Shown here: positions 6,315 through 14,748 of the stretch, piece by piece
Numbering within the stretch: position 1 is the stretch's first letter
How the letters are laid out: each line of letters begins with the position of its first letter
Assembly: GCA_017960745.1 (NCBI GenBank)
Contig: JAGCYN010000021.1
Location: 1 to 47,622, forward strand
Direction of reading: 5' to 3'
DNA from: Alphaproteobacteria bacterium
GTDB taxonomy: Bacteria > Pseudomonadota > Alphaproteobacteria > RF32 > CAG-239
DNA: 47,622 nucleotides
The notes under the pieces: model-generated
What the model saw: the letters and a program-made list of their open reading frames with translations, nothing else
Database searches by the model: none
What the model was told of the DNA's origin: nothing
Program-made: the position numbers and the translations under genes

Positions 6315-8489
6315 CTAAGCGGCCGCCTTCAGTTCTTCCAAAACTTCTCTCTTCAACGTGACGTTATCAATCTTGCCGGTCGCCGACATCGGAATTTTAT
6401 CACGATACAGAATGATGCGCGGCAAATACAACTCCGGATAACCGTTTTGCTTAACAAAGTCACGCAACATATCCATTGTCAGGCCCTTTTCGTTGGTTAC
6501 CAGCACTATTTGCTCGCCTTTATGTTCGTGCGGAATGGCCACGACACCGCAACAAAAATCTTCTTTTCCAGCAAAAGCTTTATTAATCATATTTTCAACG
6601 GCACGCAACGACACCATCTCGCCGCCGATTTTAGCAAAGCGCTTGATACGGTCTTTAATGCTGATAAAGCCGATTTCATCAATATCAACCACATCGCCGG
6701 TATGATACCAACCGTCTTCCGGCGGTACCAAAACCCCCGGATTATCGGCCATAATATAGCCGGCCATCACATTCGGTCCTTTAACCACCAATTCGCCGCC
6801 TTCTTCAATGCCGTCGATTTTATCTAAGCGACACTGCATTCCCGGACAAAGTTTGCCGATGGTGCCAAACTTGTTAAACACCATATTATTGCCCGCAACA
6901 GCCGGTGAACATTCGGTGGTTCCGTAACATTCCATTAAACGCACGCCCAAACGCTCGTTTAAGATATTGCGCGTGTCCAACTTAACGCCCTCGGCACCGG
7001 CATAACACAAGCGCAAGCTTCCGAAATCAAGCGGGTGCGAAATTTTAGCATAGCTGCGGAAAAACGTATCGGTTCCGATCATCACAGTCGCCCCGATTTC
7101 ATACAGCAAATCGCTGATAATACGGAAATGAAGCGGCGACGGATAAAGAAAGACTCTTGCCCCCTGATACAGTGCATAAAGCGTTCCCAAAACCAGACCG
7201 AAACTGTGGAAAATCGGCATTGAATTCAGAATAACATCCGTGCGGTTTACCGTTTCAAAAGTGGCAATCTGCCAAACGTTGGAAATAACGTTACGGTTCG
7301 ATAAAACTACGGCTTTCGGTGCCCCCTCGGAGCCGGAGGTAAACAAAATAACCGCGCGGTCATCCGGTGTTGCTTTATACGGCACATACTTTACTTTATA
7401 TTGCAACAGCGCCAAAATTTTTGCCCAAATTGAAATCTTTTTCGCTTCTTCTTCCAAATAGCAAACTTCATAGCCGTTTTCTTTAATGGCATCAACGACC
7501 TCTTCCAAACCGGCTTTTTTAACAAACATCTTTGATGTAATAACTTTTTTGCAGACCGTACTTCTAAGGCCGCTCAAAATATTTTTAACGCCGGCGCTGA
7601 AATTCAGCATAACCGGCACTTGACCATAGGCATTAAGCCCGAAAAAAGTGCAAATTGCCGCCACCGAGTTCGGCAACATAATCGCAACCGATTCTTGAAG
7701 AGCGGCGCCCTTATTGAAATGACGTCCCAAAACATAGGCGGCCAACATAATATCCTTAAAGCTTTTCGGCTTGCGTGTAATATCTTCAAGCACTTTCGGA
7801 CGCTTAAAACCGAAGGCCGATTTAGCGTGAATTTTAGCCGCTTTAATTAACTGCGTGAATACCGTTAACTCCGGATTATACATCGCCTCAAAGGCCTGTT
7901 CGCGCATAATCATGTAAATTTCATTGGAAATATGATTACGCTGATGGCGCAGTTCATCTTTAAGCTTTAACGGACGCGGGGCATCAACTACAATTTTTAC
8001 TTTCGGGAAATAGCGATGCGGCAAACGACCTCTGGTGCGCGAAAAATGACAATATTGCAAACCGTTAATCCAAATCGGAATAACCGGCGAATCGGTCTTA
8101 TCGGCCAACAAACCGGCGCCCTCGTAAATTTTCATGATATTGCCGTTGGTGGTCATACGACCTTCCGGAAACATCACACACAGCCGACCGGAATTAACAA
8201 TGGAAATCAATTGCTTAAGATCGGGAACATCAATATTGCCGTATTCCATCACATCCGCCGTTTTCATCAGCAAACGAACCCAATAACTGCGGTAAAGCTG
8301 TCCTTGCAACGCAAAAACAGGATTCCCCGGCAAAAACGCAAACAGCACAATCGGATCAACATAAGAAACGTGATTGGAAATATACAAACCCTTCTTCGGC
8401 AGCTGTGATATATCAAATCGCATTTCAAAACGAACTTTAAAAAGTCTGAAAAAACAACGCAGACAAAAACGCACAAAATCCCGCATCAT
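6315..8489 (-). CDS. aas: Bifunctional 2-acylglycerophosphoethanolamine acyltransferase / acyl-ACP synthetase (Aas-like)
   Basis: 724 aa. The N-terminal PlsC-type acyltransferase has the HX4D motif (NHVSYVDP). The C-terminus is an AMP-binding adenylating domain (TSGSEGAPKAV, GWYHTGD). Architecture and length match E. coli Aas. The stop codon is TAG. Confidence 0.8.
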   Translation of the reverse strand: MMRDFVRFCLRCFFRLFKVRFEMRFDISQLPKKGLYISNHVSYVDPIVLFAFLPGNPVFALQGQLYRSYWVRLLMKTADVMEYGNIDVPDLKQLISIVNSGRLCVMFPEGRMTTNGNIMKIYEGAGLLADKTDSPVIPIWINGLQYCHFSRTRGRLPHRYFPKVKIVVDAPRPLKLKDELRHQRNHISNEIYMIMREQAFEAMYNPELTVFTQLIKAAKIHAKSAFGFKRPKVLEDITRKPKSFKDIMLAAYVLGRHFNKGAALQESVAIMLPNSVAAICTFFGLNAYGQVPVMLNFSAGVKNILSGLRSTVCKKVITSKMFVKKAGLEEVVDAIKENGYEVCYLEEEAKKISIWAKILALLQYKVKYVPYKATPDDRAVILFTSGSEGAPKAVVLSNRNVISNVWQIATFETVNRTDVILNSMPIFHSFGLVLGTLYALYQGARVFLYPSPLHFRIISDLLYEIGATVMIGTDTFFRSYAKISHPLDFGSLRLCYAGAEGVKLDTRNILNERLGVRLMECYGTTECSPAVAGNNMVFNKFGTIGKLCPGMQCRLDKIDGIEEGGELVVKGPNVMAGYIMADNPGVLVPPEDGWYHTGDVVDIDEIGFISIKDRIKRFAKIGGEMVSLRAVENMINKAFAGKEDFCCGVVAIPHEHKGEQIVLVTNEKGLTMDMLRDFVKQNGYPELYLPRIILYRDKIPMSATGKIDNVTLKREVLEELKAAA

Positions 8490-8631
8490 GATAGCCCTCC
8501 TTTGTCAAACAGCGGTCAGTATATTATACTTTAAATCTGATGTAAAGTAGGCACTTCGGAGAAACTGCAAAACCGATGGTTATTGCCCGTCTGCAGTGGC
8601 ATTTTACCCTGTTTATTGATTGCTGTTTTCC

Positions 8632-8660
8632 AAAAAAAAAGCCGCTTTTACAAGCGACTT
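8632..8660 (-). terminator. Rho-independent terminator after tRNA-Thr
   Basis: Minus strand reads GTCGCTT-GTAA-AAGCGGC followed by T9. Confidence 0.7.
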
Positions 8661-8667
8661 TTCTTAT

Positions 8668-8743
<76 letters not shown>

Positions 8744-8793
8744 ATAAAACAAGTTATAGTTAATATACTTTGTTTTATTTTGCAAGAATTATT

Positions 8794-11238
8794 TTAATCT
8801 TTCTGCAAATCAGAGCGATCTTCTTGTTTTTTCTCACTTTTTCGGTCTTCGTTGGCCTTATCTCCGTTATAAACAACCAACTGATTGAACGGAATTTCAA
8901 TACCGTTTTCTGCAAATTTCTTAAAGATTATATAGCGCAAATCGCTCGGTCTGGTCCAAGAATCCCACAAATTTTTGATGTAAAAACGCAACTCAAAATC
9001 CAAACTGCTGGCCCCGAAATCTTGGAACAAAACATACGGCGCCGGATATTTCAAAATATCTTTACACTCTTTGACGCTGTCCAATAAAACTTGGCGCACC
9101 AATTCCGGATCGGAACCATATGAAACGCCGACTTTGACCGTTTGTCGTGCCATATTATCACCGTGCGTTAAATTGGTTACCGAACTGGAAATCAATGTGG
9201 CGTTCGGCACAATAACGCTGGTACGCTTGAATGTTTCCATTTCGGTCGAACGAATGTTGATTTGTTTGATTTTACCTTCTTCACCGTTCAAAACAACCCA
9301 ATCGCCAACTCTGAACGGACGTTCCAGCAAGATAATAATGCCGGCCACAAGGTTTTTAATTACATCCTGTAAACCGAAACCGATACCGACTGAAAGAGCA
9401 CCGGCGATGAATGCAAGGCTTGTTAAGTCAATGCCCATCGCAATAATCGCCAACAGCGTTGCCACAATAAAACCGATAAAGCTAACGCCGGAGACCAGCG
9501 AATGCTTGATGCCGTCATCAATATCAATCTTAGAAAGGATATTATCGTTAAGCTTATTTTTGATAATTTTAACAACCGTCAACGAAATAAAGAATACCGA
9601 TATACCCAGCGCAATTGCAATTAACGAAATCTGAATACCGCCAATCTTAAAACCGAATAACAATTTTTTGGCGACTTGAAGCAGAAAATCACCCGGCAAT
9701 CCCCATAAATTCAATAAGGTAAAAATAAGCATTAAACCGATGGCCGGATTGATAACGGCGCGCATCCAAAAATCTATTTTAGCCGATATTCGTTTACTGC
9801 TGCGATATTTGCGCATCCATGGCATTGAGGCAATGATTTTTTGCAAAATATCAATCAAAGAGCGGCGCAGTACTTCGAAAAGACCGCAAAGAATGAGCGT
9901 CATGATAATATGGCGCAAAATAAACAGCGACAATTCCGGATAGCCGAACAATGAAGCCGCAAAAATCGTCATACAGAAAACGTGTGATAACAAAATTAGC
10001 TTAAAACTGTGCGAAACCTCAATATCTTCATCTTCCGAACTTATATCTTCGGCAAAATCATCCTTATAGGTATCAAAGGCAATCTTGGATATAAACATTA
10101 AAAAGAACGCGATCACGGCACACGAAATAATCATCACAAAATGAATCGTTTCAACCGAATATTCCACTTCCTGCGCAATATAAACCTGAATGGAAGCAAT
10201 TGCGTTCAAGATAATAAAGGTAAAAATCAAATGCGTAAACCGTGCCGCTTTTTCGGTCGAAATATTAACCAAACGCCACTGCGGATAATTCGGGGCAAAT
10301 GTCACGCGTGAAATGGTTGCTTCAACAATAGCCAACAAGCTGGTAAATGCGGCTGTCATCAAAACCGTATCCAGCAAACTGCCGGCAAAAATCTTCGTAC
10401 TGACCATCCACAAAATACAGCCGATGATTAAAAAGGCAAAAATCAGCCCGCGCGCCGTTGCAACGGCAATCGCCGCCACCAACTTGCGGTTAAATGTCGG
10501 TTCCTTAATTTCTTCCTTATAACCGAAAGTTCTTAAAATGAAACGTCGCAAGAAAATGGCCATCGTGAGCGCAATCATCAAAATCACGCACATCAACACG
10601 ATATTAAAAATGGCATACGAACGCTGTTCTGCCGGTAAATTATTATACCAGTCTACCGGCGATTTAACTACATCCCAGAAGAAGATAACGTATGCTTTCA
10701 CACCGTTGAAAAACACCAGCGGATTGATAAATGCCGACTGTTTGGTCATCAAATCGCCATATATTTTTTGGTTACGCAAATTCAAAATCTTGCCGGTTAA
10801 ATCTTCCATTTGGATAACCAATAAATCCGCTTCCTTAAGAATTCGATCTTGCGATGCCAGTCTGAGCGAAAGCTCGTCACGTTGTTTGGTAATGGCAATA
10901 TCTTCGGGATTGCCGTCTTGAGCATCTCCCAAAGCATCAAGCTGCTTTTGTAAAAACTTTACTTCTTTTTCGATTTCTTCGTGTTTCTTGGCAATACTGG
11001 CTTCCGTGCCGGTCAAATATGAAACATACTCATCAATTTTTTCGCGGGTAACATTGCCTTTAATCTTATTTTCGATAACCGTTATTTTTTTACGAATATC
11101 CGTAAAATCAATCGTTTCCGAATCTTGTTGCACAACCGGTTTGGCCGACGGCCTTGAAGGCGGCTGCGCCGTGCCGGCCGTAACCGCCGACATCATCAAC
11201 AGGAAAGCTAAAAGCAGAATTTTTACCAATTTACCCAT
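8794..11238 (-). CDS. Large mechanosensitive channel, MscS family (MscK/MscM-like)
   Basis: 814 aa with a signal peptide, a periplasmic coiled region and about 11 TM helices. Conserved MscS core GIGFGLQDVIKNLVAGIIILLERPFRVGDWV. The start lies 5 nt after the upstream stop. Confidence 0.85.
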   Translation of the reverse strand: MGKLVKILLLAFLLMMSAVTAGTAQPPSRPSAKPVVQQDSETIDFTDIRKKITVIENKIKGNVTREKIDEYVSYLTGTEASIAKKHEEIEKEVKFLQKQLDALGDAQDGNPEDIAITKQRDELSLRLASQDRILKEADLLVIQMEDLTGKILNLRNQKIYGDLMTKQSAFINPLVFFNGVKAYVIFFWDVVKSPVDWYNNLPAEQRSYAIFNIVLMCVILMIALTMAIFLRRFILRTFGYKEEIKEPTFNRKLVAAIAVATARGLIFAFLIIGCILWMVSTKIFAGSLLDTVLMTAAFTSLLAIVEATISRVTFAPNYPQWRLVNISTEKAARFTHLIFTFIILNAIASIQVYIAQEVEYSVETIHFVMIISCAVIAFFLMFISKIAFDTYKDDFAEDISSEDEDIEVSHSFKLILLSHVFCMTIFAASLFGYPELSLFILRHIIMTLILCGLFEVLRRSLIDILQKIIASMPWMRKYRSSKRISAKIDFWMRAVINPAIGLMLIFTLLNLWGLPGDFLLQVAKKLLFGFKIGGIQISLIAIALGISVFFISLTVVKIIKNKLNDNILSKIDIDDGIKHSLVSGVSFIGFIVATLLAIIAMGIDLTSLAFIAGALSVGIGFGLQDVIKNLVAGIIILLERPFRVGDWVVLNGEEGKIKQINIRSTEMETFKRTSVIVPNATLISSSVTNLTHGDNMARQTVKVGVSYGSDPELVRQVLLDSVKECKDILKYPAPYVLFQDFGASSLDFELRFYIKNLWDSWTRPSDLRYIIFKKFAENGIEIPFNQLVVYNGDKANEDRKSEKKQEDRSDLQKD

Positions 11239-11243
11239 TGTTT

Positions 11244-12254
11244 TTATCCTTGTTTTTTAAGCATTATTTTCAACAAACCGTATGCGTTTTGTGCCGTTCC
11301 CGCGCGCAAATCATCGGCAACACTCCAAAAGCTGAAACCGTTTTCAACGGAAACATCTTGTCGTAAGCGACTGACATAAATATCGCCTTCGCCTTGAACA
11401 TCGTTGATGGAAACATAGCCGCAATCAACGTGTTTATCAAACACAACCACCCCTTTGGTATCACGCATCATATTGCGAACCTCATCAACATCAACTTCTT
11501 TTTCGCATTCAACGTTAATATAAGCGCCGATACCGATAAACGCCGGAATGACGGCGCAGTTGGCATGAACCTTAATATCTTTATTCAATATTTTTTTGAT
11601 TTCAACATTAGCCGCCCACTCACGCGCCGTTTCATCGCCGATAAATTCCCCGACTTGCGGCAAAACATTAAACGCAATCTGCTTATGAAAAATTTGTTCG
11701 TCATCAACCAACGGCTCATTCATAAAAATTTTTCGCGTTTGAGCAAACAACTCATCCATCGCTTCTTTGCCATAAACCGAAGCGGCCATGTAAGTGCTTA
11801 TAACCAAGCGCTTAATCGTCAGCTTTTCGGCAATTTTCTGCAAAGGTATCAAGGTTTGCAAAACCAGCGGCGACGGCAAAGAAATAATGCCTTTACGCGC
11901 CTCACCGATTTGTTCCGGATTGATTTCCGGAATAATCAACGGAACGTCGCTGTCTGTGGTGTAAGCGCCGGAACAATCAATAACAAAAGCGCCTTTGGCC
12001 AGCGCCCTCGGCACATAATGTTTGGAAACTTCTTCAGAAGTGCAAAAAACGACTATTTTCGCCGAAGCAAAATCAAAATCTCGCAAATTAAAGACGTCCA
12101 TATCCACGTCTTCGCCGTAAGAAATCTGCGTACCGAGCGGACAATCCGTATCAACGGCAAAAATATCGTCCGGTGATGTGTTGTTTTCTTCCAAAATGTT
12201 TAACAGCTCACGGCCGCAACTGTTCATAACCCCGATAACAGCAACTTTTTTCAT
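11244..12254 (-). CDS. asd: Aspartate-semialdehyde dehydrogenase family protein, apparently catalytically degenerate
   Basis: Full-length similarity to alpha-type Asd (VPLIIPEINPEQI, KRLVISTY, KQIAFNVLPQ, VENGFSFWSVADDLRAG). The start is set at the ATG preceded by AAGGA. The ORF also extends 6 codons upstream to 12272. Catalytic motifs are replaced (see findings). Confidence 0.75.
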   Translation of the reverse strand: MKKVAVIGVMNSCGRELLNILEENNTSPDDIFAVDTDCPLGTQISYGEDVDMDVFNLRDFDFASAKIVVFCTSEEVSKHYVPRALAKGAFVIDCSGAYTTDSDVPLIIPEINPEQIGEARKGIISLPSPLVLQTLIPLQKIAEKLTIKRLVISTYMAASVYGKEAMDELFAQTRKIFMNEPLVDDEQIFHKQIAFNVLPQVGEFIGDETAREWAANVEIKKILNKDIKVHANCAVIPAFIGIGAYINVECEKEVDVDEVRNMMRDTKGVVVFDKHVDCGYVSINDVQGEGDIYVSRLRQDVSVENGFSFWSVADDLRAGTAQNAYGLLKIMLKKQG

Positions 12255-12392
12255 CTCAAACATCCTTTGCAAATTCTGTAATCGGATGCATTGTATCGAA
12301 AAAAGATTAAAAGGTTATAAATTTTTAAGAATTTTTATAATTTTTGCTTTAAAACCGCTGAAGCGCCCTTTTTCAAGGACGCTTCATGTCGA

Positions 12393-12635
12393 TTAATGAT
12401 TACGAGTGCCGCGGCAATTGTACGCACTGGTGGCACTTGTGTTCTGAGAACGCAACTCGGTTCCCTCAGCATTTTGATTCCTTTTCTTCTTGTCGAAAGG
12501 CCCGTCGTCGGAAAATTTAATTTCCACTTCTTTGCCCGGCAGACCGACGATTTGTTCAATCACAATCTCTTTACGCTCAGGCGGCGGTACGGGGCTCGGC
12601 GTGGTGAAGAAACAGGCAAGAACTAAACTCATCAT
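12393..12635 (-). CDS. Small hypothetical protein, possible lipoprotein
   Basis: N-terminus MMSLVLAC is lipobox-like, followed by a Pro-rich stretch. There is no clear SD, and the ORF track starts it at a TTG at 12641. Confidence 0.3.
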   Translation of the reverse strand: MMSLVLACFFTTPSPVPPPERKEIVIEQIVGLPGKEVEIKFSDDGPFDKKKRNQNAEGTELRSQNTSATSAYNCRGTRNH

Positions 12636-12647
12636 ACGCAATGAATA

Positions 12648-13058
12648 TTACAGGTTAAAATAAGTTGGTGAAATCTTTGTCAGACGCTGATGCTTATCCG
12701 TGGCAACCGGCTTGTAGCGCGGCATACCGTTGATGGTATCTGCCTTGTCATAGGTAACGCCGTCGATTTTGAAGCGCCCGTTAACATTTGTCTGCGCGGC
12801 CATCTGATGATTGTTGACAACCTGCGTGGCGCCGGAAGCAACATCAACCAAAACCGCTTGTTCGCCGGCTTGCTTCACGAAGGCATAAAAAGGTTTGCCG
12901 GAAACGTGATTGAAAGCGGGCATACGGAGCACAACCTTGGAAAGCGTGACACTCTTTTCGACAGAATCGAGATTGAGGATCTTGATGATTTCGTCGGCTT
13001 TACCGTTAGCGATAAAAGCATTCAGCTTAGATGCGCAAATAGACTTCTTCTTGCTCAT
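12648..13058 (-). CDS. Hypothetical protein (136 aa)
   Basis: Clean ORF in the same orientation as its neighbours. No family recognised. Confidence 0.5.
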   Translation of the reverse strand: MSKKKSICASKLNAFIANGKADEIIKILNLDSVEKSVTLSKVVLRMPAFNHVSGKPFYAFVKQAGEQAVLVDVASGATQVVNNHQMAAQTNVNGRFKIDGVTYDKADTINGMPRYKPVATDKHQRLTKISPTYFNL

Positions 13059-13149
13059 AAATTTTAGGAATTTAGGGTTAATAAATATAAATACTTAGTC
13101 ACTGGGGACTCTTATAACATTTATTTTTGTCTAAATCAAGCAAAAGTTT

Positions 13150-14748
13150 TTATTTTTTGCATTTTGCAAATAAATCAAGGTCTTGCACATATTCTGTGGT
13201 GTGAATTCCGCCGACGCTCAGAACCGAATGGAAGAAATTATCATGCGAAATCGGCTCGGATGCCGAATCCGTTAAACATTCTTTGTCTAAATTTAAAGCG
13301 GCAAAAGTTTCATCTTCCGCCCAAATGAAAAACGGAATATCCTTTTGCTCTTGCGGCGCAATAATATACGGTGCCGAATGCAAATAAATATTGTTTTCGC
13401 CCAGCGATTCGCCATGGTCGGAAACGTAAAAAAGCATGATGTTATAATCCTTTTTATACGGCGCAACCGTTGCAATGATATCGGCAATATTTTGCGACGT
13501 GTAGTCAATTGTATTGTCGTAAACATTAATCAGTTCTTCATGCGAACACTCATCCAGCTTTTCAGTATTGCAGGCCGGCAAATACGGCGCCTTTTCCGGT
13601 TTATAGCGTTTAAAATATTTCGGGCCGTGACTGCCGATTTGGTGCAAAACAATAACGGTGTTCTGCGGCTCTTTCGGCATACTTTTGCCGATTTCCGGCA
13701 GCATCACGGCATCCAAACAATCCGCTTCCTGCGGATAGGCGCGACAAGGATACAACGTTTCGATTCGAGGGCAAATATCCTTGCAATCGCTGTTATTTTC
13801 CACCCATACCACATGATAACCGCCGCGTTTCATCACATCCAACAAATTTTCGGTATAAGCCATACTGCCGCTGACAAAATCCGCGCGTTTGTTCCTAGAA
13901 AACATACATGGTAGCGACACCGCCGTTGATGTGCCGCAGGAAACGGCGTGCGGATAGTTGATAATGTTCTGTTTATAGCCGTTTAACGGTGCATTGGTGT
14001 CGCGCTCATAGCCGTTAAACGAAAAATGATCGGCACGTGCGGTTTCGCCGACAATCAGCACCAACAGGTTCTTTTTATCGTTTTGCCAATATTTTTCAAA
14101 ACGGGCATCGCGACCGATTTCCATAAATTCATGATTTTCGCGATAATATTTTTTAACCATGCTGTTGACGGCGCTGATATAATTAACCGGTATCAGCTGA
14201 TATTTCAACGGTTTATGGCTGCGCACAAACGGCGCGGTTTTTTGAAAGCTTACGGCAATCGGCGTGACGGCAATCAAAATTAACCCCAGAATCAAAAAAG
14301 TTTTAGCTTTAACCGATGTTTTAGGCGCAAACTGCAACCGCCAAATCAATAAACACGGCAAAAAACCCAACAACAAAATATATGCCGCCCATTTCCAATT
14401 CAGCAAATCTTGAGTTTCAGCCCAGTTTGTCTGCAACGTGTTGCGCAACATTTCATCATCAATGTAAACATTGTAGGTTTTCACAAAATAAAAAACACTG
14501 CCGTTAATCAGCAAAAACAGCCACGATAACGGTTTAACGGTGTGTTTATGAAACAAGATAAAACAACACAGCGAACCGAGCGCCCATAAAACCACAAAAG
14601 AACCTATCGTAAAAAGCAAGCTGCTTTCCCGATAAACCTTTTCAAAAAACACTGTATTGAAAGCCAGCAAGTTGTATAACATGAAAAGAATGTCGTAGGT
14701 TTCCAGCCGAACGAATATCTTCTTTTTGTTTACAACTTCTTCCATCAT
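13150..14748 (-). CDS. eptA: Phosphoethanolamine transferase, EptA/MCR family
   Basis: 532 aa with 5 N-terminal TM helices and a sulfatase-fold domain. Family motifs GETARADHFSFNGYERDTNAPL and SDHGESLGENNIYLHS are present. Confidence 0.85.
   Translation of the reverse strand: MMEEVVNKKKIFVRLETYDILFMLYNLLAFNTVFFEKVYRESSLLFTIGSFVVLWALGSLCCFILFHKHTVKPLSWLFLLINGSVFYFVKTYNVYIDDEMLRNTLQTNWAETQDLLNWKWAAYILLLGFLPCLLIWRLQFAPKTSVKAKTFLILGLILIAVTPIAVSFQKTAPFVRSHKPLKYQLIPVNYISAVNSMVKKYYRENHEFMEIGRDARFEKYWQNDKKNLLVLIVGETARADHFSFNGYERDTNAPLNGYKQNIINYPHAVSCGTSTAVSLPCMFSRNKRADFVSGSMAYTENLLDVMKRGGYHVVWVENNSDCKDICPRIETLYPCRAYPQEADCLDAVMLPEIGKSMPKEPQNTVIVLHQIGSHGPKYFKRYKPEKAPYLPACNTEKLDECSHEELINVYDNTIDYTSQNIADIIATVAPYKKDYNIMLFYVSDHGESLGENNIYLHSAPYIIAPQEQKDIPFFIWAEDETFAALNLDKECLTDSASEPISHDNFFHSVLSVGGIHTTEYVQDLDLFAKCKK

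Follow-up and report, generated by a model that had tools for sequence, protein, structure and literature searches.

A putatively dead ortholog of aspartate-semialdehyde dehydrogenase is conserved upstream of an MscK-like channel gene in an order of small-genome Alphaproteobacteria

INTRODUCTION

What does an enzyme of core metabolism do in a genome that keeps its gene intact after its catalytic residues and the pathway that it served have both disappeared? This question is raised by a gene, here named asdL, that occupies positions 11244 to 12254 of contig JAGCYN010000021.1 (GenBank assembly GCA_017960745.1), from an alphaproteobacterium of the family CAG-239 in the order RF32. The window that we analyzed is the whole stretch of 47,622 nucleotides (nt) of this contig (positions 1 to 47,622), and all of the features of the window described below lie on its reverse strand. 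The product of asdL, AsdL, is a 336-amino-acid (aa) homolog of aspartate-semialdehyde dehydrogenase (ASADH, or Asd), and public databases label it asd. A first reading of the sequence (referred to below as the original prediction) had proposed that AsdL is a candidate pseudoenzyme with the Asd fold. Here we report that AsdL is, to judge from sequence comparisons, a catalytically dead Asd ortholog that is kept by selection throughout its order, where its gene almost always lies directly upstream of a gene for a large mechanosensitive-type channel of the MscS family, and we consider whether the two proteins are partners.

RESULTS

AsdL contains both of the Asd domains (PF01118, 69.7 bits; PF02774, 101.9 bits) and scores above the cut-off of the NCBIfam model NF011456 "asd" (273 against 223 bits) and below that of TIGR01296 (245.6 against 324.2 bits). 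In phmmer searches against PDB chains, AsdL aligned end to end with Vibrio cholerae Asd2 (2qz9; E value, 2e-51) and with Streptococcus pneumoniae ASADH (2gyy), and the alignment is collinear over 330 residues, in agreement with the original prediction that the protein is colinear with Asd of the alpha/Gram-positive type. An AlphaFold2 model based on 52 homologs (predicted local distance difference test [pLDDT] score, 86; predicted template modeling score, 0.85) had ASADH structures as its top Foldseek matches, with a template modeling score of 0.81 for 2qz9_A. The Asd fold is thus predicted to be retained in AsdL.

The catalytic residues are not retained. When AsdL is aligned to 2qz9 and 2gyy, Pro129 (11868 to 11870) occupies the site of the catalytic Cys nucleophile (LPSPLVLQ in place of NPNCSTIQ), Met156 (11787 to 11789) that of the active-site Gln (STYM in place of STYQ), Val235 (11550 to 11552) that of the Arg that binds the substrate carboxylate (CAVIP in place of CxRVP), and Ile242 (11529 to 11531) that of the catalytic His (FIGIG in place of FxGHS); the replacements of Cys and His are also evident in the alignment with homologs. 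The dinucleotide-binding loop, canonically GATGxVG, has degenerated to GVMNSCG (residues 8 to 14; 12213 to 12233). The phosphate-binding Arg that ends the motif IDNSSxFR is replaced by Thr99, the segment reading IDCSGAYT, and SVYG is found at the SGAG contact to the nicotinamide (STYMAASVYG against STYQ.VSGAG). The longer signature C.RVPVF.GH reads CAVIPAFIGIG. In the ExxK motif, the residues Glu and Lys (E218 and K221), which we take to be the amino-group-binding and the phosphate-binding residues of ASADH, respectively, are conserved within the genus and not across the wider AsdL family.

The original prediction had listed its substitutions from an alignment made by eye, and the formal phmmer alignment to 2qz9 and 2gyy returned every one of them; an alignment of this kind might have restored a catalytic Cys and His, and it gave Pro129 and Ile242 instead. 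The broader claim that every catalytic residue is substituted is correct for the Cys, His, Arg, and Gln residues and for the loop, but not for the Glu and Lys of ExxK, which are kept in the genus. The codons assigned to the Cys and His replacements were also correct, whereas the residue numbers given for them, Pro135 and Ile248, had been counted from a TTG at 12272 and should be Pro129 and Ile242.

Cys and His are absent from the catalytic positions in all of the 120 nearest database homologs (62 to 100% identity), and the catalytic residues are likewise absent from all 62 orthologs that were extracted from 20 genera of the order and aligned. As the same losses recur in both sets, they cannot be attributed to chance or to sequencing error. 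In the family as a whole, I, M, C, S, A, E, V, Q, T, L, D, or G stands at the position of the His, and P, A, F, S, or G at that of the Cys. The Gly-rich loop is equally variable, with sequences such as GYNDALS and GEVKAV-, and the ability to bind nicotinamide adenine dinucleotide phosphate (NADP) has presumably been lost.

The reading frame of asdL is unbroken from the ATG at 12254 to the TAA stop codon at 11244 to 11246. A Shine-Dalgarno sequence, AAGGA (12263 to 12267), is present 8 nt 5' of the ATG, which orthologs share as their start codon, their products beginning with MKK or MRK. A spacer of 5 nt (11239 to 11243), a distance typical of translational coupling, separates the stop codon from the ATG of the channel gene. 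The intact frame, the good Shine-Dalgarno sequence, and the 5-nt distance had been noted in the original prediction, and each can be read directly from the sequence.

In order to survey the order, 151 genomes from 20 genera were used (1.3 to 2.0 Mb, nearly all at least 95% complete). These are metagenome-assembled genomes, related ones among them are not independent observations, and a gene described below as not found is one not found in the sampled genomes at their stated completeness. Exactly one intact asdL, with no internal stop codons or frameshifts, was present in 147 of the 151. In comparisons with the two closest relatives (85% and 83% identity), the ratio of nonsynonymous to synonymous substitution rates (dN/dS; NG86 method) was 0.05 to 0.08 for asdL and 0.06 to 0.09 for the channel gene, values that are approximate, though clear in their direction, as dS was 1.2 to 2.1 and near saturation. 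Within the genus, AsdL is 72 to 78% identical and the adjacent channel 51 to 67%. The proposal that asdL is maintained rather than decaying is therefore well founded, given the low dN/dS, the 147 intact copies, among which frameshifted orthologs were sought and not seen, and the conserved channel neighbor.

Although the original prediction had left room for a real asd elsewhere in the genome, there is none, as asdL is the sole match to PF02774 in the 1.39-Mb assembly (88.5% complete); congeners likewise have one homolog each. Genes of the diaminopimelate (DAP), lysine, threonine, and methionine pathways were searched for in this genome (G000) and in four 100%-complete congeners, and dapA, dapB, aspartokinase, dapF, hom, and lysA all had no match over the cut-off, while the control genomes gave matches in these searches. 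Throughout the order, dapA exceeded its cut-off in one of the 151 genomes (G106). The aspartokinase profile gave only matches of about 35 bits in open reading frames (ORFs) of about 240 aa; these were rejected as aspartokinases, being below the cut-off and covering only the region of the shared amino-acid-kinase fold, and the ORFs are probably candidate UMP kinases. Because aspartokinase, dapA, and hom were not found, AsdL has neither a supplier of its substrate nor a consumer of its product.

The genome with dapA, G106, contains beside this gene a very divergent asd of the canonical type, with Cys, Arg, and His present (L070, G106:C1:27953-29681), and in addition the asdL-channel pair. The canonical-type gene was probably acquired horizontally or is a contaminant. 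Since G106 keeps the asdL-channel pair alongside it, AsdL is no mere spare copy of Asd.

We also observed that the genus apparently has only two Mur ligases, encoded in G000 at C130:29286-30680 and C9:7868-8809 (both on the reverse strand), and the same was found in G004, G011, G014, and G017. One of the two is MurC/Mpl-like (313 bits with the murC model, whose cut-off is 335, and 163 bits with that of mpl) and the other is MurF; in none of these five genomes did a MurD or a MurE exceed the cut-off. This suggests that, in a genus without MurD, MurE, and the DAP pathway, peptidoglycan precursors derive from scavenged muropeptides and are not made de novo. A literature search combining RF32 and diaminopimelate found nothing relevant.

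In a maximum-likelihood tree, the AsdL sequences of the main family form one clade (Shimodaira-Hasegawa-like approximate likelihood ratio test, 100; stem length, 0.78). The sister of this clade (support, 96) is a copy from the second family of the order (G024), and the next branch outside the two is a canonical alphaproteobacterial Asd, at 44% identity. The G024 copy is degenerate in a different manner: its active site reads CPNSITTE, in which Ser replaces the Cys, and Glu and Ile stand at the positions of the His and the Arg, respectively, while STYQ and IDTSSAFR are kept. From this tree position, AsdL is judged to be an ortholog of single origin that descends from the lineage's own asd, and not a paralog of the USG type. 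Membership in USG-1 (Usg) was considered and rejected: the scores are below the cut-offs of PRK08040 (175 against 273 bits) and PRK05671 (171 against 284 bits), in agreement with the tree, and AsdL is a sole copy nested among alphaproteobacterial Asd sequences. The parent gene would have encoded an alphaproteobacterial ASADH of the short, Asd2/asd_B type, and both the ASADH machinery and the NADP-binding glycine loop would have been lost in the ancestor of the order, whose members are Alphaproteobacteria of the gut and rumen with small genomes.

The two domains of AsdL are now conserved to different extents. Averaged over the pairs among 22 AsdL representatives with mutual identities below 70%, sequence identity is 0.37 for the N-terminal Rossmann domain and 0.55 for the C-terminal one, compared with 0.58 and 0.59, respectively, in canonical Asd. 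The cofactor domain is relaxed, and conservation in the dimerization domain has been tightened. In the family conservation profile, the core of the C-terminal domain (residues ~160 to 320; 11295 to 11777) is strongly conserved, and the following residues of this domain show no variation in AsdL, in contrast to Asd: TR173-174, FIG204-206, EW212-213, HAN230-232, D273, D277, GY279-280, QGE287-289, RQD298-300, and NG305-306. In the monomer model, pLDDT is lowest in the best-conserved stretch of AsdL (about residues 180 to 210), as would be expected of a segment that packs on a partner or on the other subunit.

The gene downstream of asdL (8794 to 11238) encodes an 814-aa protein of the MscS family (PF00924 and PF21082) with a signal peptide, a periplasmic coiled region, many transmembrane helices, and an MscS core at residues 536 to 809. 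Its best NCBIfam match is the MscK model NF008438 (219.6 bits; cut-off, 991), and because this score is far below the cut-off and the match covers the C-terminal core only, we refer to the channel as MscK/MscM-like and not as an MscK equivalog. Match coordinates from the 151 genomes showed that, in 138 of the 147 genomes with asdL, this gene lies directly upstream of, and on the same strand as, a gene for an MscK-like channel of about 800 aa, and the adjacency persists across family-level divergence (32 to 78% protein identity). At 66 related loci inspected at the level of single bases, the spacing between the stop codon of asdL and the start codon of the channel gene ranges from -20 to +53 nt, with most values between -4 and +10 nt (one further junction, outside the 66, gave an artefactual value). 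The nine genomes in which adjacency was not found comprise two with contig breaks (G160 and G024), three of one genus in which the genes are on separate contigs (G047, G099, and G124), and four more of that genus for which channel coordinates were not listed. At six canonical alphaproteobacterial asd loci, no channel gene was present within 3 to 5 kb.

One of the two genomes with contig breaks, G024, belongs to the second family. About 20 nt past the stop codon of its asdL begins an ORF that encodes a signal peptide and runs off the end of the contig, and the channel match of G024 starts at residue 145, at the beginning of another contig. On the basis of this ORF and the channel fragment, the pair probably predates the diversification of the order.

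In five congeners (L003, L007, L037, L040, and L044), asdL ends with a TAG that is in frame with the ATG of the channel gene 9 nt later (AAA TAG GAG AAA TCC ATG). A fusion of the two products through read-through or reassignment of TAG was considered and rejected, as TAG is an ordinary stop codon that ends 101 of 570 long ORFs in the genome of the window and the TAG in question is part of a TAGGAG Shine-Dalgarno sequence. These junctions represent coupling, not fusion. At another locus of the order, G119:C5 (L081:1737-3785), a gene for a 682-aa protein with a signal peptide and multiple transmembrane segments is located upstream of the channel gene and overlaps its start.

As for the remaining surroundings of the pair, a 136-aa ORF 5' of asdL (12648 to 13058) has no Pfam or NCBIfam match and is kept at the same position in many congeners (27 to 46% identity). 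A hairpin of 9 bp followed by a run of four Ts (GGTTTT) lies between this ORF and asdL (approximately 12351 to 12385); scans for promoters and terminators around asdL gave counts no different from those in shuffled sequence. An Rfam E-value scan of positions 8400 to 13200 detected no lysine riboswitch, and nothing other than a tRNA gene (8671 to 8743; 65.3 bits) and a sub-threshold Trp-leader match overlapping it. The tRNA gene is situated about 50 nt 3' of the channel stop codon and closes the asdL-channel unit.

DISCUSSION

The only pointer to a present role of AsdL is the conserved operon that asdL forms with the channel gene. We favor the reading that AsdL is a noncatalytic cytoplasmic partner of the MscK-like channel, with an accessory, regulatory, or assembly function, and give it about even credence. 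AsdL would act on or with the channel nonenzymatically, its gene being translationally coupled to that of the channel and selection being concentrated on its C-terminal domain. A new binding or regulatory role, as was suggested in the original prediction, is also what we would infer. More tentatively, and with a good deal of doubt, AsdL may be a cytoplasmic accessory subunit dedicated to an MscS-family (MscK-like) channel and the first of its kind; an AsdL dimer, derived from a biosynthetic enzyme, would dock on the cytoplasmic vestibule of the channel via the conserved C-terminal domain and tune its gating or its assembly, perhaps when a metabolite binds at a remodeled site.

Several observations weigh against a partnership and are at the same time what would be expected if AsdL were a selected, noncatalytic protein whose function, for instance as a scaffold or regulator, is unrelated to the channel, the pair reflecting inherited synteny or a shared promoter. 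The three genomes with the genes on separate contigs, all from one genus (g22), keep both genes unlinked, and in G047 a different gene follows asdL. In at least one complete genome, G119, the channel is retained and AsdL is missing, another gene standing in the place of asdL. A search of 5.8 billion sequences with a concatenated AsdL-channel query, in which the AsdL part alone was scored and proteins of 632 to 2012 aa were taken as candidates, found no fusion of the two. The evolutionary rates of the two proteins are not obviously matched, since a fast-evolving AsdL subclade (31 to 41% identity to the query) shows no acceleration of its channels (38 to 40%, against 41 to 48% elsewhere). Other Asd homologs without Cys and His, in other lineages, are found in unrelated contexts, and tight operons may persist in reduced genomes by inheritance; the near saturation of dS noted above also weighs against our reading as a whole. 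We nevertheless regard a role unrelated to the channel as possible but unlikely, as adjacency at coupling distance or with overlap in 138 of 147 genomes, at protein identities of 32 to 78%, exceeds what is usual for unrelated neighbors, and as the six canonical asd loci do not have the channel gene beside them.

Rather improbable, in our judgment, is that AsdL is no pure pseudoenzyme and has become a new enzyme or a small-molecule receptor with a new site in its C-terminal domain. Many of the residues invariant in AsdL and not in canonical Asd are polar or charged (H230, N232, D273, D277, Y280, Q287, E289, Q299, D300, T173, and R174), and the Glu and Lys of ExxK are kept within the genus, both of which speak for such a site; the positions of the old pocket, however, vary freely and the Gly-rich loop is not conserved, which makes a nicotinamide-dependent redox reaction unlikely, and no metabolic genes surround asdL. 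We would be very surprised if AsdL still made or consumed aspartate semialdehyde by a noncanonical mechanism. It passes NF011456 and is annotated as asd in databases, but it scores below the TIGR01296 cut-off, the nucleophile that would form the thioester is missing, as are the His and the Arg residues for the substrate and the phosphate, and its genome has no aspartokinase upstream of the reaction and neither dapA nor hom to use the product. That asdL is merely a relic pseudogene, slowly decaying after the loss of the pathway, is effectively refuted: the pathway is indeed gone and the N-terminal domain does evolve faster, but the dN/dS of 0.05 to 0.08, the 147 copies from 20 genera without frameshifts or internal stop codons, and a within-genus identity that exceeds that of the adjacent channel are not those of a decaying gene.

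AsdL would be a clean natural case in which the ortholog of a core-metabolism enzyme outlasts its pathway as a pseudoenzyme, selection having moved from the cofactor domain to the dimerization domain. Its annotation as asd means that metabolic reconstructions would wrongly credit these gut and rumen Alphaproteobacteria with a step of lysine, DAP, threonine, and methionine synthesis. The problem extends beyond this order. When 1.84 billion cluster representatives were searched, Cys or His proved to be missing at the aligned positions from 73 of the 150 closest 50%-identity representatives (P0129 to P0270, those nearest to P0001), and all 10 of the Cys/His-less representatives that were tested pass the NF011456 "asd" cut-off, which points to a systematic over-annotation of asd. 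Four other dead Asd lineages were sampled, and three of them are in unrelated contexts without a channel gene. In the fourth (P0130, L077:380-1839), on an unrelated metagenome contig of 1.8 kb, a downstream gene that lies at the contig end overlaps the Cys/His-less Asd gene by 4 nt. By eye, the product of this neighbor looks like DapB (N-terminal GYTGRMG), and the locus would then be a dead Asd in the context of the DAP pathway.

We found no paper that joins ASADH with the term "pseudoenzyme." Nor did we find a link between an Asd homolog and a mechanosensitive channel, since in the papers where a semialdehyde dehydrogenase and MscK both appear, the titles and the openings of the abstracts show nothing that connects them. 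To our knowledge, no protein partners have been established for the large MscS-family channels, and the order-wide asdL-channel pair is a testable candidate partner for a channel of this class. Dead Asd homologs are known in passing, and the order-wide orthologous lineage and its pairing with a channel gene are not described in the literature that we searched.

A precedent is provided by USG-1/Usg and the "nonfunctional" proteins of the Asd2 branch. Section 45 of a 2025 review of the aldehyde dehydrogenase superfamily (PMC12041015) devotes a single sentence, without context or function, to Asd2/USG sequences that are catalytically dead. AsdL resembles the proteins named there in being an Asd homolog without catalytic residues and with no function known from that section, and differs from USG-1/Usg in that it falls below the cut-offs of the USG models and is the sole copy within an alphaproteobacterial Asd lineage.

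With the active short-type ASADHs (Asd2/asd_B; TIGR01296 and NF011456; structures 2qz9 and, from S. pneumoniae, 2gz1), AsdL shares the two-domain architecture, the length, and the collinearity over 330 residues, and it retains the dimerization-domain motifs M.EL, AFN..PQ, SR.R, and W..D. It differs from them in the absence of Cys, His, the substrate Arg, Gln, the phosphate Arg, and GxxGxxG, in having no pathway partners, and in forming an operon with a channel gene and not with biosynthesis genes.

For the arrangement of the genes, a functional analogy may be drawn with the Kef systems. KefF and KefG are soluble ancillary proteins with an enzyme fold, encoded just upstream of, and translationally coupled to, the genes for the K+ efflux systems KefC and KefB. 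They have the fold of flavodoxin-like quinone oxidoreductases, which is unrelated to that of Asd, KefF has kept its enzymatic activity, and their partners are antiporter-like Kef channels, whereas the putative partner of AsdL is a channel of the MscS family. What AsdL would have in common with KefF and KefG is an enzyme fold encoded immediately upstream of a channel gene and coupled to it, and in AsdL this fold would have been put to use without its catalytic residues.

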